In this document: positions 21,225 through 28,503 of the stretch, piece by piece
How positions within the stretch are numbered: the first letter of the stretch is position 1
Layout of the letters: each line of letters begins with the position of its first letter
Virus record (IMG/VR): IMGVR_UViG_3300032272_000002
Coordinates: 64,001-128,000 of that record
Source: a virus
Reading direction: 5' to 3' (one strand)
Length of the DNA stretch: 64,000 nucleotides
Notes under the pieces: model-generated
Told to the model about the DNA's origin: nothing
Databases searched by the model: none
Seen by the model: only the letters and a program-made list of their open reading frames with translations
Program-made: the position numbers and the translations under genes

Positions 21225-22067
21225 TTAGTTATCTTCAAAAAGAGAACCAGATACCCAATCATGAGTGCCTGTAGCTAGTCGAGTTAGTCCACCAGACAAA
21301 ACCGCACGAGTTCCTGTAAGGTCAATATCGTTTGATTCGCCACCCACAATAACTGCATCATTACCAACGGGTCTATTATCAAATCCACCCACAACCACAG
21401 TACGTAATCCAGCCGACTTATTATTTAGCCCACCTACTGCCGTTGAATATAATCCAGACGCAAAATTATCCTTACCGCCCACAACTACACCATGAGTACT
21501 GATTAGAGATTGATTATTGAGACCGCCCACTACAACAGAATAATCTCCACCACCATGATTTAATTGTCCTCCAACAACAACAGAATATTCTTGGGCGGCT
21601 TGATTGCCTGCACCGCCTACAACAACGGACCAGTCATTATTTGAAAAATTATCAAATCCACCCAAGACAGATGAATATGGTAGGGCAATATCATTACTAG
21701 AGCCGCCAACAAGTCCGCCATAAGATTGGAATGCGTTTTCAGTTCCAAACACAATGTTATGAGAGCCAGTACGTACATTCGTACCACTTTCCTCATTGTA
21801 GCCAATAATCAAATTACCGAGACCATTCGTTGTAGCAGTTGATCCAGTTGTATTGACAACCTGCAAGTTACTCTTGACACGCAGGGCCTCCACCGTGCCA
21901 CCCTGACCATCTGGAATCTGTACGACCGCGAGTAAATTGAGTACGTCTTTTTGGCCCTGCGTTAAGCAGCAAAACTGTTGTACTTGAGGGGCGGGTGCTG
22001 CCATAGCAGACAGGCCAATAAGGCCCAGCGTCAGCAAGGCACCAGCAATAAGGGATTTCATATTCAT
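21225..22067 (-). CDS. secreted GG-x-x-N repeat (YadA/Hep_Hag head-like) protein
   Basis: signal peptide MNMKSLIAGALLTLGLIGLSAMA; ~14 aa repeats SVVVGG..N.A. Confidence 0.7.
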   Translation of the reverse strand: MNMKSLIAGALLTLGLIGLSAMAAPAPQVQQFCCLTQGQKDVLNLLAVVQIPDGQGGTVEALRVKSNLQVVNTTGSTATTNGLGNLIIGYNEESGTNVRTGSHNIVFGTENAFQSYGGLVGGSSNDIALPYSSVLGGFDNFSNNDWSVVVGGAGNQAAQEYSVVVGGQLNHGGGDYSVVVGGLNNQSLISTHGVVVGGKDNFASGLYSTAVGGLNNKSAGLRTVVVGGFDNRPVGNDAVIVGGESNDIDLTGTRAVLSGGLTRLATGTHDWVSGSLFEDN

Positions 22068-22068
22068 A

Positions 22069-22713
22069 TTAATTATTTTCAAAGAGTGAACCGGAAACCC
22101 AATCGTGGGCTCCGAAAGCTTGGCGGGTTGAACCACCAGAAAGAACAGACCAAGTGCCATTAGCAACATTCGACTGTCCACCAACGCTAACGGAATCATT
22201 TCCACTAGCAGAATTGTTTTGCCCACCAACAGCTACAGACCATAGACCAGTGGTAACATTTTGACGACCACCCACAACAACGCTGTTGGTAGAGCCAGGG
22301 ACATTTAGTTCTCCTCCGAGAACAGAAGAGATAGGAAATACCGTCGAGTTATTCGTGCCGAAAAGGACGGTGCCGTAGCTGGTATAACTAAGGCGGTTGC
22401 CCGCGATAAGATTATGCGAGCCGGTGCGTACATCACCCTGAGTGGCACCGAGATCATTGTAGCCGACGATGATGTTGCCGAGCCCATTGACCGGGCCGAT
22501 GGTGTCGCCAGAGCCATCAACCACTTGAAGGTTGCTTGTGACTCGGATAGCTTCCACAGTGCCGCCGATGCCGTCGCTCAATTGAACAAGCTCGAAGCGA
22601 GCGAGGATGGCCTGTTGGGCCGGGGTAAGAACGGCGAGCTGGGTCTGTTGAGCCATAGATAGACTCAGGAGAATGCCGCAAGTTGCCAGCACTCCCAAGA
22701 AGAATTTTTTCAT
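22069..22713 (-). CDS. secreted GG-x-x-N repeat protein (paralog of the neighbouring gene)
   Basis: signal peptide MKKFFLGVLATCGILLSLSMA; shared NGLGN.I.GYN, RTGSHN, HDWVSGSLFE. Confidence 0.7.
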   Translation of the reverse strand: MKKFFLGVLATCGILLSLSMAQQTQLAVLTPAQQAILARFELVQLSDGIGGTVEAIRVTSNLQVVDGSGDTIGPVNGLGNIIVGYNDLGATQGDVRTGSHNLIAGNRLSYTSYGTVLFGTNNSTVFPISSVLGGELNVPGSTNSVVVGGRQNVTTGLWSVAVGGQNNSASGNDSVSVGGQSNVANGTWSVLSGGSTRQAFGAHDWVSGSLFENN

Positions 22714-22716
22714 TGT

Positions 22717-23346
22717 TTAGTATCCAAACGCTTTCAGTGACAAATCAAACTGACCAGTCTCCTTGACTAGTCTCAACATTTCCTGTGCAATTACCCTAAT
22801 CTCCACCTGTGCGTGTTCGCTATTGCGGAGACCCTGGAAATGCATAAAGGAACGAAAATTAAAGCTGACATCAGCCGTAATTTGGTTAGCATAAGGGAGA
22901 TAGAAGCGGGCCGACTCCTTCGCACGCTTACGGGTGAAGCCGTGATCCTTCACGAGACGTTCGAGCATCTCGTGATACTTCTCATACTGTTGCTCCATAT
23001 CCTGGAGAAAGATTAGACGCTCCTCAAGAGGCCAGTCTTGGGGAATGTAGATTTTATCCTCTTTCAATTCCTTGTAGCGGGCAGACTCAGCATTCACACT
23101 GACGCCAATCCTATGCTTGATGATATGGATATGACTAGCAATATCTGTGGTCACCAGGAAATGCAGATCACTCTTCTCAAATGGCGTATGATGTCCAGCC
23201 TCGGCCAGTGTCGTCAGCATCTTGTTAATCCGCCCACGCTTCTCATCGCTAAGCTCACGACTGGTGGAGGTCCAAGCTGACAGGGCGTGAGACTCGTCGC
23301 CGCCATAGGTTCCAATCAATTCTACTGTGTTATCGTTTGCACTCAT
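22717..23346 (-). CDS. thyX: FAD-dependent thymidylate synthase
   Basis: GHHTPFE, KHRIGVSVNAESARY, KESARF, HAQVEIR; start moved to ATG 23346. Confidence 0.93.
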   Translation of the reverse strand: MSANDNTVELIGTYGGDESHALSAWTSTSRELSDEKRGRINKMLTTLAEAGHHTPFEKSDLHFLVTTDIASHIHIIKHRIGVSVNAESARYKELKEDKIYIPQDWPLEERLIFLQDMEQQYEKYHEMLERLVKDHGFTRKRAKESARFYLPYANQITADVSFNFRSFMHFQGLRNSEHAQVEIRVIAQEMLRLVKETGQFDLSLKAFGY

Positions 23347-23656
23347 ATGTTTTAGACTTAAAGTCGTTCTCGTGGGTGTGGACAAACTTCCACTGTGGAC
23401 GGGACGTGTATTCCCTATTTCTGGTTTTACAATAGGGGCACACGATGTTATATTCTGGCTCATCACCTGATGTCCAATAGTCACCGCCTACTCACCCGTA
23501 GGGTGACACATAGTATTTCATAACAATGAGATCCAGATTGCTGATCCTCTTGCCACGGTTACACTTATTGCAACGCCAAATTCGCTTGCCCCGCAGGTCT
23601 TGCTTCTTAGCTTTCAGCTCCTCGATCTGAGCTTCTATCTTCTTCTCGGAAGTCAT
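23330..23656 (-). CDS. zinc-ribbon protein with in-frame TGA at codon 55 (candidate selenoprotein, otherwise a pseudogene)
   Basis: reading through TGA 23492-23494 gives 108 aa: ...CNKC...YYVSPYG-(TGA)-VGGDYW...CPYC...YECKR*; fills the gap to thyX. Confidence 0.6.
23451..23479 (-). promoter_or_regulatory. SECIS-like hairpin downstream of the in-frame UGA
   Basis: TATTGGACATC-AGGT-GATGAGCCAGAATA; apical loop starts 23 nt after UGA with G at its second position. Confidence 0.45.
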
Positions 23657-23777
23657 GGATGATCTCGAAGTTGTTGTCATAGACAACGGTCTTTTGTAGT
23701 TGTGCGGAGGCAATGGCCCACTCTTCTTTGATGTGGGCTACCTTACCAGGAATGGATACAGCGGGCGTGTAAAACAT
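23607..23777 (-). CDS. small hypothetical protein (56 aa, not in the ORF track)
   Basis: TAATG overlap with the upstream stop; MFYTPAVSIPGKVAHIKEEW... Confidence 0.5.
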   Translation of the reverse strand: MFYTPAVSIPGKVAHIKEEWAIASAQLQKTVVYDNNFEIIHDFREEDRSSDRGAES

Positions 23778-24138: not shown

Positions 24139-26175
24139 TCATAAAGTGCAGCTATCTCCATCACATCCACGCGGAGCGTTTTGCTCGACGTGGATATCCT
24201 CAAAGCTGATCGGACGAATGTCTCTAGACATCTCCTTATACTGCTCTTCGGTGATAGCCTCATAGGGGGCTTGAGCATAACCATGGTCATCTAATGGTAA
24301 GAAAGAAATACCTTTTAGTTGATCTTCGAACATCTCAAGCGTGTGCTGGACATCCTGTTGCTCGTCCTTCTCGAAAGTAACTGTGATAGAAACTTGGTTG
24401 TCTGCCCACTCACGCTGATACGCGACGGCGTTTGAAACCTGCTCCCAAATAGACACGTCTCTCTTGCCGCGTACGAAGAATGGCTCATACACAGGAAACT
24501 CTACAACCATCGTGCTCTCCTCTTGGCCCAGTGCTGGCTCTACCTTGTGTCCAGCGGCCTGAGCGGCTCTCCAGAGTTCTGAGTGGAGGCCCACGCGGAT
24601 ACGTCTGATGTAGTATTCCGAGTGAGGATAGTGAATGCCGGGCGGCTCGCCGGGCAACAGGCTAACAGTACCGCTGGGCTTCACGCTCGTCTTTTTGATG
24701 GAGCGTGGCACGCCAAGCCAATTACTGTATTGAACATCCAATCCGTTGATAAATTCATAGCCTTTATCACACCAACGAAGTACTTCACGACGACCGTGAC
24801 GATTGAATGCCTTGATAATGCCACTCTGGCTTAAGCCGATACGTCGGTTCTTACACATTACAGCATTTGTCTCGGGCCAATGCGTAGGAACCAGAGTGAC
24901 AGTTTTGGCATAGAGATACGCAATCTTAAGCGTCTCTAAATACTCATCGAGACTTTCGTGCCTTGCGGGGAAAGTCTCAACTAGAGTACATAATTCATAG
25001 TTGTGGAGGGTTTGCTCTAGGCAGGGATTACCGCCAACGGCGTCCTTGTCGCCCCACGTAGGAGCGTCCTTCATACGACCGTAGGCACGGGCGTTATCCA
25101 TCCACATGTACCCAGGCTCACCATTTACTGACGTTTGGCGAGCATGCCATGAGTAGTCCATCCCGACCTTGGCGAAGATGGAGTTGTTGGAGGCCCAACG
25201 ATGACTCATTAGCTTTTCTTTATCTTGCTTTAATAGAGAGAACTCTTCATCAGTGTGCTCCCCAAATACAATTTCAGCCGACCGTCTCACGTTTCCCGCT
25301 ACGACGCATCGGCCAATAAGGTTACCGATATCTACAATATCAGATGAACTAAGTGTTTGTCCAATTTTAGCCTGTAAAATGCTTTCAATATCAATAAGCA
25401 TCGCCTTCAACGGCTCGGGACCACTAGACGTGCCGCCAAAACCCTTGATAGGAAGACCAGCCTTGCGGACTTCTGAGAAGTCAAACGTTGGCTTAGCCTG
25501 ATCGAGTGTGGTATAGGCATCAATAACTAAGCGGAGAGCTTCGACCCAGCCCTCTCTTGTATCCGGCACCACGAATGTAGACTCGTTCGCCTGCGGCTCC
25601 ACGACGGTTAGCTTGCCAGCTCCGCGAACATCAAAACCAACGCCCACACCCACCATAGACATATCCATAATAAAAGCCGCCCACTTAGACGGCTCTTCGG
25701 CAATTTGCTCTGTGGACACAAAGGCACAATTGTTGAGTGCGGCCCCACCCCTAGTGGAAACGTAGTCCGTGCCCATCGCCCAGAGACCACGCCCCGGTGG
25801 CAAGAACTTAAAGTCCCACATCAATTGATACATACGCTTGGCGGTACGCTGTGCCTTACGCTCGTCCCAGGGAAGATGGTTTCGCGTGCAGTGATTCTTT
25901 TGAATAGAGAAAGTACCCTCTACAATACGCCGCACGGTTTCCGCATACTCCTCAGTGCGTACCTCTTGGCTGCCGCAATCCGTGCAGAACCAATCAAAGT
26001 CATCCTGGTTTTTATGATAGTCTAGTTTATAAGAATGACAGTCGTTGCACAAGCTACGAGCGTATGTTCTTTTAAATGTAAAATAGCCAACAGGACCCCA
26101 TTCAGGTTGTTTGTTTTTGAACTTGCTAAGAAATGTATCGGATAGGTCGAATGAATGATGGGCAATGTTAAACAC
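24139..26175 (-). CDS. nrdJ: class II (B12-dependent) ribonucleotide reductase, monomeric RTPR type
   Basis: PPGRGLW, NNCAF, GNVRRSA, GGNPCLEQ, KPSGTVS, C-terminal CDGDSC. Confidence 0.95.
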   Translation of the reverse strand: MFNIAHHSFDLSDTFLSKFKNKQPEWGPVGYFTFKRTYARSLCNDCHSYKLDYHKNQDDFDWFCTDCGSQEVRTEEYAETVRRIVEGTFSIQKNHCTRNHLPWDERKAQRTAKRMYQLMWDFKFLPPGRGLWAMGTDYVSTRGGAALNNCAFVSTEQIAEEPSKWAAFIMDMSMVGVGVGFDVRGAGKLTVVEPQANESTFVVPDTREGWVEALRLVIDAYTTLDQAKPTFDFSEVRKAGLPIKGFGGTSSGPEPLKAMLIDIESILQAKIGQTLSSSDIVDIGNLIGRCVVAGNVRRSAEIVFGEHTDEEFSLLKQDKEKLMSHRWASNNSIFAKVGMDYSWHARQTSVNGEPGYMWMDNARAYGRMKDAPTWGDKDAVGGNPCLEQTLHNYELCTLVETFPARHESLDEYLETLKIAYLYAKTVTLVPTHWPETNAVMCKNRRIGLSQSGIIKAFNRHGRREVLRWCDKGYEFINGLDVQYSNWLGVPRSIKKTSVKPSGTVSLLPGEPPGIHYPHSEYYIRRIRVGLHSELWRAAQAAGHKVEPALGQEESTMVVEFPVYEPFFVRGKRDVSIWEQVSNAVAYQREWADNQVSITVTFEKDEQQDVQHTLEMFEDQLKGISFLPLDDHGYAQAPYEAITEEQYKEMSRDIRPISFEDIHVEQNAPRGCDGDSCTL

Positions 26176-26178
26176 AGA

Positions 26179-27414
26179 TTATCTCCTCTTCGGGTCGAAT
26201 AGGGCGGCACCAGGAAGCAATGACTCACCCTTCAAAATTTTATCTCGTACAATCATACCAGCCGTGAAGGCGTGTGATACACCGTAGCCGTTGAAACCAG
26301 CAGCGATAAACTCATTTTCCCTGCCGGGAAGTTCTCCTACGAGGGGCATTCGATCCTCTGTGAGACACATAATGCCAGACCATACGTGAGTAAACTTGGC
26401 ATCAATAAATGGTAAGTGATTTTGGAGGAACTCTTTCTGACGCTTAAAAACAGTTTGACTGATTTCGCCGTCATAAATAATACCCTCCTGCTGTCCCCTA
26501 ACGTTCTGTCTTTGTCCTCCAAAAAGGAGGCGACCGCCGTGAGTGCGGAAATAGTCAGAGCCGTTATTACAGGATACACTCATGGTTGGCAACGCTTCGA
26601 TAGCAGACTTAGGCAGGATGTCAGTGGCCACCATCTGGCCTCTGCACGGCGTAAACTTATCCTTCAGTTCTGGCAACAAACCAGACGAGTACGCATTCAT
26701 ACAGTACACTACTTTCTTAGCGTTGATGACTCCCTTGTGTCGAATCGAAACACTCAAACTCCCATCGTCATTTCGGTCAACACTTTCCACACAGGAGTTC
26801 GTAAGCACGCGGGCTCCACTGGTCTCCAGTAGGTCGCGAGTGCCGTTGACAATTTTGTATGGATTTACAGTGGCCTCACAGGGGAGATAGATGCCGCCCA
26901 GGAATCCCTTAGAAGGAAGAAGGGACCGAACCTCAGCCTCAGTCAAGTCGATGCACTTTACGCCAGTTTCTTTTGCAAGATCATTAATAAATGCCGACTC
27001 TCGCCTAAGTAATTCTAACTCCTCAGGGGTCGTCGCCAGTCGGAGGCCACCACCCTGTACGAGATCAGTGTCAAACTTGGTGCGTGTCAGGGCCGAAGTA
27101 AATTTACGAATATTAAGGGCAGAGAATCTTAAGTACTCTTCCGCCGCCCCTTCACCCAGTCTCTCGGCAAGCTCAACGAATAACTCATGCCCTCTAAGCA
27201 TAAGCTGTCCACTAGCTCTACCTGAGGCGTGATATCCTACTGTCGCTTCCTCTAAAAGATAAGCATTAGTAACACCACCCCTTACGAGGTGGAACAATGT
27301 GGAGATACCGGCGATACCGCCACCGATTACTAGAACGTCTACATTCTTAACAAACCCAACCCCGTTGTGGCACTTGGTTGGGCAAGTCTCGAACCAGTAA
27401 TTGCTGTGTTTCAT
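26179..27414 (-). CDS. FAD-dependent oxidoreductase (DAO/PuuB family)
   Basis: DVLVIGGGIAG, ASGRASG, RGQM, WSG, GFNGYG. Confidence 0.9.
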   Translation of the reverse strand: MKHSNYWFETCPTKCHNGVGFVKNVDVLVIGGGIAGISTLFHLVRGGVTNAYLLEEATVGYHASGRASGQLMLRGHELFVELAERLGEGAAEEYLRFSALNIRKFTSALTRTKFDTDLVQGGGLRLATTPEELELLRRESAFINDLAKETGVKCIDLTEAEVRSLLPSKGFLGGIYLPCEATVNPYKIVNGTRDLLETSGARVLTNSCVESVDRNDDGSLSVSIRHKGVINAKKVVYCMNAYSSGLLPELKDKFTPCRGQMVATDILPKSAIEALPTMSVSCNNGSDYFRTHGGRLLFGGQRQNVRGQQEGIIYDGEISQTVFKRQKEFLQNHLPFIDAKFTHVWSGIMCLTEDRMPLVGELPGRENEFIAAGFNGYGVSHAFTAGMIVRDKILKGESLLPGAALFDPKRR

Positions 27415-27741
27415 TTAGAGCATTTCCTCTAGAGAGGGACCGTCCTCCTCGATCTTACCTTCCTGCATGGCACGGAGAACTTTTTTGAGATCTGCTGGTG
27501 ATGGCTCGAAGTGCTGAACCTTGTTGCGATCAATACAAGGGATACAAATATCTGCAAATAGATCAATCGTACCACCCGCGTATGTATCATACGTTTTCTT
27601 TTCTAGCGACACCGTGTGGTCGTGCGGGCGAGTCATACGCTGCTTATCACACTGTGGACAGCGAAAGACACGTTTGCCGCCGAACTGTTCTAGCTGTCTT
27701 TGTCGTTTCGCCTCGCGTGCTTCTCTGGTTTTCTTGCTCAT
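27415..27741 (-). CDS. hypothetical zinc-ribbon protein
   Basis: CPQC...CIPC. Confidence 0.7.
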   Translation of the reverse strand: MSKKTREAREAKRQRQLEQFGGKRVFRCPQCDKQRMTRPHDHTVSLEKKTYDTYAGGTIDLFADICIPCIDRNKVQHFEPSPADLKKVLRAMQEGKIEEDGPSLEEML

Positions 27742-28193
27742 CCTGTGCTTCCAAATCCTGCTTCGCCCCTGTTCGACTTGAGAATCTTGGTCGTGTTCTC
27801 AAACGATAGAGGGCCAACATCTTTAATTGTAATGGGGATACGTTTCACAAGCTCAGCTTGTACAATCTTGTCGCCTCTCTTAATATCAAAAGACTTTCGC
27901 TTTCCATCGACCGGCAGCCATCTAACAACCGCCTTAAGAGGACCATGATAATCTTCGTCAATAATACCAGCACCAATGATGATACCTTTAGTGGCAAGGC
28001 CGGAACGCTCACGGAACTCTAGGCCGTAACCCTCGGGTAACACCAGTTTTACGCCTAGATCAATCAGTTTGGTTTCACCTGGATAAATTTCGACATCCTC
28101 GGCGGCATACAGATCCATGCACTGGGCACGGTCTGTCGCCTGCGTCGGAAGCTTTACCCCTTTGTCCGTGCGGAGTACTTGAATCTCAGGCAC
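27738..28193 (-). CDS. dut: trimeric dUTPase
   Basis: MDLYA, RSGLA, GIIDEDYHG, GDKIVQ, RGEAGFGSTG; start moved to GTG 28193. Confidence 0.93.
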   Translation of the reverse strand: MPEIQVLRTDKGVKLPTQATDRAQCMDLYAAEDVEIYPGETKLIDLGVKLVLPEGYGLEFRERSGLATKGIIIGAGIIDEDYHGPLKAVVRWLPVDGKRKSFDIKRGDKIVQAELVKRIPITIKDVGPLSFENTTKILKSNRGEAGFGSTG

Positions 28194-28503
28194 CAAGATC
28201 CTCCTCGCGGCCTTCGTCCTTATTCCAGCGGACCCACGTCTTCGGGAAGAGCGTCTTGCCATTGTCGTGCTGGCCGAACGGTAGTTTGGCGTAGCACGAG
28301 CTGCAACGCAGCTCGAAATACTTATGAGCCTTGCCTTTTTTGTCCTCCTGCACACGAACACTATACCTCAGATCCTCGCTTTTGCAACCTCCACATTGAG
28401 AAATCGCGAAAACTTCCTGATATTCGGCCAGCGTCTCGAACAGTTCTTTTTGCCCCTCGGCCTCGACGGTTACGTTACCAGATGTTACAGTTACTTTAGC
28501 CAT
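28186..28503 (-). CDS. hypothetical zinc-ribbon protein
   Basis: CGGC...CSSC.A.L.FGQ. Confidence 0.75.
   Translation of the reverse strand: MAKVTVTSGNVTVEAEGQKELFETLAEYQEVFAISQCGGCKSEDLRYSVRVQEDKKGKAHKYFELRCSSCYAKLPFGQHDNGKTLFPKTWVRWNKDEGREEDLGA

Follow-up and report, generated by a model that had tools for sequence, protein, structure and literature searches.

A UGA codon in the middle of a small gene of an uncultured phage is probably decoded as selenocysteine (Sec) by the SelB/SECIS machinery of the host, and the gene would then encode a phage selenoprotein of 108 amino acids. The gene lies in the window, i.e. the whole stretch of 64,000 nucleotides that was analysed (positions 64,001 to 128,000 of the IMG/VR record IMGVR_UViG_3300032272_000002; coordinates in the record itself carry the prefix C1, and the phage is called G000). 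The sequence-only reading of this DNA had claimed a TGA at 23492-23494 with 53 open codons behind it, and this was borne out, with the addition of the strand, which had been left unstated and is the minus one. The read-through frame runs from an ATG at 23656 to a TAA at 23332-23330, and termination at codon 55 yields a product of 54 aa; on the plus strand of 23330-23656 no sensible coding was found. The CNKC motif before the UGA and the CPYC motif after it are, as claimed, both present in frame (Table 1).

Table 1. Features of the read-through gene and its surroundings (positions in the window)
Feature	Positions	Strand	Remarks
Read-through gene, 108 codons, phage zinc-ribbon family	23330..23656	minus	N-terminal helix, CxxC, long hairpin, CxxC
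In-frame TGA, codon 55	23492..23494 (record C1:87494)	minus	aligned to near-invariant Cys
First CxxC, C29-C32, probable zinc ligands	23561..23572	minus	149/150 conserved
Second CxxC, C73-C76	23429..23440	minus	C73 149/150, C76 138/150; made only with UGA read-through
Family signature Y-x-x-P-x-G/S-(C/U)-x-G-G-D-Y-W, residues 49-61	23474..23512	minus	
Candidate bSECIS: upper stem with apical loop AGGU (23468-23465)	23461..23472	minus	ensemble probability 0.84
Full stem-loop of the candidate SECIS, both stems with the internal loops	23438..23491	minus	-15.0 kcal/mol
Alternative hairpin, UGA in loop	23480..23507	minus	competes with SECIS lower stem
thyX	22717..23346	minus	Pfam Thy1 E 2.9e-37; ATG overlaps last 17 nt of read-through frame
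56-aa ORF upstream, overlapping gene start	23607..23777	minus	conserved in G006, a relative
Upstream ribonucleotide reductase (class II-like)	24139..26175	minus	TGA as its normal stop

The read-through product has 409 relatives at E<=0.001 (counted as 50%-identity representatives), and among the best 150 of these 409 column 55 is occupied by Cys in 148 and by His in one, and is absent from one; Trp, named earlier as a residue that would argue against selenocysteine, is seen in none of them. The homologue motif P.GC.GGDYW, with Cys at this site, had been put forward in the sequence-only reading and proved correct in the family alignment. Nor do the homologues end at this codon, which had also been regarded as adverse, barring a single one (P0035) that itself has a TGA with an open frame beyond it. 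The cysteine of this column is the fifth one, standing between the two CxxC pairs, and it is not a CxxC ligand. In the AlphaFold2 model of the read-through product (pLDDT 96.5, pTM 0.82) an N-terminal helix is followed by strands, and position 55 is placed in the loop linking strand 42-50 to strand 60-62, from which we infer that the residue is exposed at the tip of a hairpin. According to this model the four cysteines of the CxxC pairs are most likely ligands of a structural zinc, and the Cys or Sec at position 55 would most likely be either an exposed nucleophile or a metal ligand offered to a partner, as the model and the conservation together suggest. Of two relatives, P0156 and P0073, one is without the entire hairpin-tip motif and the other carries His where the Cys would be, which shows that a scaffold lacking the reactive residue can exist.

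P0035, a protein of 57 aa, is the sole C-terminally truncated relative among the best 150 of the 409, and it ends exactly at column 55. Its DNA, found in two Logan assemblies (loci L011 and L012), has a TGA at this place, then T-G-G-D-Y-Y, a second CxxC and an open frame up to 126 aa. The two loci come from two runs and are identical over the gene; the protein is 47% identical to the G000 read-through product, the contig has 35% GC, and the next gene on it stops at TGA. UGA at codon 55 is therefore found in one further phage beyond G000. Both could be explained by recent nonsense mutations (TGY to TGA) in an accessory gene that the phage can dispense with, the second copy having arisen independently, the hairpin being incidental and the product a dead fragment of 54 aa. 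One base change suffices for this in each phage, but two transversions would be needed at the same one of some 60-80 stop routes in phages whose proteins are only 47% identical, and the codon struck is just the conserved non-ligand Cys of the family. Other internal stops are rare, with one in 82 non-redundant Cys copies, and since 61-78 single-base routes lead to a stop in each gene, the chance that a second random truncation falls on codon 55 can be roughly estimated as 0.03. The only other internal stop seen in the family is a TAA upstream of the motif in a Cys-type member (L099:1496-1498, approximate positions). In the tree both UGA copies are in the same region of the family and are never sisters in 200 bootstrap trees, as independent mutations would have it; on the other side the test of a common origin gave p-AU 0.37, so that the tree neither shows nor rejects a single origin of the UGA.

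The hairpin CATC-AGGT-GATG, which the sequence-only reading had pointed out, is present, with its loop 23 nt after the UGA and a G as the second loop base, and its stem is continued by a lower stem beginning right after the UGA. The bSECIS model allows a loop of 3-9 nt and an upper stem of 4-16 bp with a G in the first two loop positions, and sets as further limits a spacing of 16-37 nt and an energy <= -7.5 kcal/mol (PMC13188914). In our own implementation of the rules in Fig 2 of that paper, the G000 hairpin agrees with all four constraints (AGGU, spacing 23, 4-bp upper stem, -15.0 kcal/mol). A strict version of the test was passed by 13/82 Cys homologues, by 20% of the synonymous shuffles and by 7/46 ordinary TGA stops of G000, and the folding z was about 0 against shuffles in windows of 31-75 nt after the UGA. 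Since about 15-20% of the controls pass and the folding is not exceptional, the hairpin alone is not beyond chance, and we valued it at about 5:1. The copy in L011 fails the model: its best candidate reaches -6.0 kcal/mol with an ensemble probability of 0, the favoured hairpin has a loop without G, and a GU found at the same offset as in G000 stands in a different pairing register. The two UGA copies thus do not have a model-fitting SECIS in common (G000 yes, L011 no; n=2), and the SECIS argument, in which the hairpin does fit the model, is weaker than had been implied, with some 15% of the controls fitting as well and the second copy failing. That the hairpin is common in controls and absent in L011 speaks for the nonsense explanation. 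It should be emphasized, though, that some selenoprotein genes also misfit the bSECIS model (review, PMC13188914), hence the failure of L011 lowers the case for Sec and does not kill it. The other structure that had been claimed, a hairpin with the UGA in its loop, also exists (-14.6 kcal/mol, z -1.26) and is probably incidental. No Rfam match was found around the gene.

UGA is clearly the minority state in the family. A codon-unbiased scan of IMG/VR yielded 23 family members with TGY in 23/23 and UGA in 0/23, a rarity that favours nonsense mutation. Two truncated-protein searches returned no third UGA copy, and queries with an alignment of the N-terminal half retrieved nothing beyond the two truncated copies already known and a member without the hairpin motif; all these searches, the pattern scans included, have little power for copies that are truncated or divergent. 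The matches to a TGA-form DNA pattern in GTDB (11) and in IMG/VR (14) were all due to chance.

The idea that close relatives should tell a selenoprotein gene from a simple nonsense pseudogene had a divided outcome: the closest syntenic relative, L013, has TGT at codon 55 and three related phages are without the gene, and against this stands the second phage with the same TGA and an intact frame. In L013 the gene adjoins thyX in the same gene order, has the same last five residues as the read-through product and overlaps thyX by 13 nt. Its identity to the G000 protein is 24/54 before codon 55 and 28/53 after it, so in comparison with this Cys orthologue the two halves of the protein are equally conserved. 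A nonsense mutation, if it is recent, would be expected to leave the downstream frame intact too. In the three phages without the gene the neighbouring FAD oxidoreductase is 54-58% identical, and in two of them the reductase could be matched (69-73% identical); the absence from all three makes the gene an accessory one, which speaks for the nonsense explanation. Taking both sides together, we consider two unrelated nonsense mutations unlikely.

Genes for selA, selB and selD and for tRNA-Sec are not present in the phage record (83% complete), thus Sec insertion would have to use those of the host; a release-factor gene was not found in the record either. A tRNA-like match at C1:51897-51982 was considered as tRNA-Sec and rejected, since it is a tRNA-Ser with TGA anticodon and an odd D-arm, missed by default ARAGORN. 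The UGA might also be read through purposefully with another residue, either Cys, by a SECIS-dependent host tRNA-ReC (SelC*) or by the phage tRNA-Cys(GCA), or Trp, by a leaky phage tRNA-Trp. For the first of these there is a precedent, tRNA-ReC reading UGA as Cys before a SECIS (PMC13582414), and a route free of SECIS would also explain L011. The phage tRNA-Cys(GCA) (C1:48917-48990) has in its anticodon stem two U-U mismatches side by side, the sole such case among the 28 phage tRNAs; with 74 nt and a short arm it is not SelC-like. The same odd tRNA is conserved in G006, a related phage without the gene, so it is probably a trait of the lineage, and four related genomes showed no further TGA/Cys pair. 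Similarly, tRNA-Trp(CCA) (C1:45001-45074) has a U11-A24 pair of the Hirsh-suppressor type, yet A24-type variants of tRNA-Trp are common in bacteria (PMC13092985), and Trp never occurs at column 55, neither in the best 150 relatives nor in the 23 IMG/VR members. Outside the window the phage has a CUA-anticodon (amber) tRNA at C1:38560-38633, of which further examples are found in G006 and G009, and a candidate Pth2-like gene (C1:39252 onward) with a TAG at codon 3; by this pair the phage appears to use read-through elsewhere. On the whole, insertion of Cys or Trp at codon 55 seems distinctly improbable to us.

TGA is a normal stop elsewhere, as had been claimed: it ends 72/253 crudely called G000 genes, most commonly in the context TGA-A (23/46). 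Among the approximately 140 called genes that G000 has in common with its relatives, C1:87494 is the only clean internal stop, and no other Sec candidate was found in the genome. Being alone among the compared genes, the internal stop speaks against both a genome-wide recoding and a noisy assembly, and it also means that there is no second Sec gene among them; equally, it adds to the evidence against nonsense decay. Genome-wide reassignment of UGA (codes 4 and 25) was rejected on the stop usage just given, on the lack of any other TGA/sense pair and on the lack of a UCA-anticodon tRNA in G000. A sequencing or assembly error for TGT/TGC is very improbable, as the same TGA was found in another phage in two runs, no other internal stop turned up in the compared genes, and two long contigs carry a record of this same 54-aa product, one of the contigs being an ENA assembly of 169,752 bp, though these two assemblies are probably from one sample.

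Host-encoded Sec insertion, as proposed in the sequence-only reading (by SelABC), is consequently the most likely explanation without being established: the Cys column, the second TGA copy and the model-fitting hairpin speak for it, the looseness of the hairpin test and the rarity of the UGA against it. In a host with selA/B/C/D, SelB would bind the in-frame hairpin (with the G of the AGGU loop, 23 nt downstream) and would bring Sec-tRNA to the UGA, by which the zinc-ribbon protein could be made in full, its Gly-rich hairpin loop bearing a selenol; if Sec were not inserted, RF2 would terminate and leave the 54-aa fragment with half a zinc site. We are inclined, by a little more than an even chance, to go further and regard the exposed cysteine of the zinc-ribbon hairpin as a working residue which at least two lineages have swapped to selenocysteine via host SelB, their expression of the protein being tied to a Sec-competent host and to selenium. 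In weighing Sec we took an uncertain prior (random Cys-to-TGA changes versus real phage Sec genes), the value of the hairpin given above and about 4:1 for a second copy without a SECIS; the likelihoods worded here for the several explanations are judgements and not computed posteriors. With only two UGA copies the case counts as supporting evidence.

The closest known systems are the bacterial genes with a SECIS inside the open reading frame, of which fdhF of E. coli is the prototype. The G000 gene is like them in having UGA at a conserved Cys column with homology on both sides, and its stem-loop is like theirs in the G within the first two loop positions, in a spacing of 16-37 nt and in an energy < -7.5 kcal/mol. 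In fdhF the loop is about 6 nt closer to the UGA than the AGGU loop of G000. The gene differs from them in being phage-borne, with no sel genes nearby and with a family that is not among the profiles searched, and furthermore in that the second UGA copy has no model-fitting SECIS; partly because of this failure we filed the gene as a candidate and not as a member of the bacterial SelB/SECIS genes. NF041197 (CxxC_Se_CxxC, OS_HP3) is alike by its family name, being small with two CxxC and a Sec/Cys, which is an analogy of architecture only: its motif is RxU versus G-U-x-G-G-D-Y-W here. Membership in it was rejected, since the G000 protein gave no match and the second copy scored 16.4 bits against a cut-off of 40, by the CxxC knuckle only.

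Among viruses, glutathione-peroxidase selenoproteins are known from the poxviruses molluscum contagiosum and fowlpox, with the fowlpox SECIS in the coding region (PMC8310308). They are similar to the present case in being virus-encoded and in relying on host Sec machinery, which in G000 is a proposal, whereas they belong to eukaryotic viruses and are host-derived enzymes with a eukaryotic SECIS, and here a phage family with a bacterial-type SECIS is concerned. The phages with genome-wide stop reassignment (codes 4, 15, 25) likewise have a stop codon inside real phage genes, but in G000 only one such site is concerned, many genes end in TGA and long genes are without internal TGA. A phrase search of the searchable literature for a phage-encoded selenoprotein found 0 papers, and the 2026 review of the prokaryotic selenoproteome makes no mention of phage or virus (PMC13188914).

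If the Sec assignment is true, a new family would be added to the selenoproteome, and phages would be able to use the Sec decoding of their host in genes of their own. Such genes would be truncated by gene callers, and both copies are recorded as fragments of 54-57 aa. Additionally, the host of the phage should be a Sec user, and the exchange of Cys and Sec would point to residue 55 as the functional site in a family of 400 clusters without known function.

In Pfam, PHROGs and NCBIfam the protein matched no family above the cut-off, the gene had no match in GenBank phages, and a word-indexed protein search with the read-through sequence gave no matches; an atlas search with two homologues, P0003 and P0072, returned only unnamed viral clusters, all under 0.9. 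The fold searches were weak (best PDB Z 3.1; no Foldseek match at E<=0.001; best viral model TM 0.54, E 0.008), which indicates neither a new fold nor the absence of a known one. Many contigs of uncultured phages, the longest of 529 kb, carry the family, and over 85 loci no neighbouring gene is conserved. One locus, L002, was rejected as a relative because it rests on a chance CPYCK match.

The source record is linear, has 169,742 bp and is by estimate about 83% complete. Its 28 tRNAs (ARAGORN), together with genes for DnaE, DnaB, a RecA-like protein and primase and with sugar-nucleotide genes, indicate a genome of the large tailed-phage type. The ribonucleotide reductase gene and two small ORFs stand upstream of the read-through gene, and thyX downstream. 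A DAO-family FAD oxidoreductase gene (26179-27414, minus strand) adjoins the reductase and has 52-58% identity in all related phages examined, and two small CxxC genes (27415-27741 and 28186-28503, minus strand) are conserved in the phage group at 46-71% identity, with ordinary Cys codons here. Downstream of thyX, at 21225-22713 on the minus strand, there is a tandem pair of paralogous genes whose products have repeated V-V-x-G-G units and an N-terminus predicted to be signal-like, and a C-terminal tag of the F-x-L-x-G-A-L type ends 23 of the called G000 genes.
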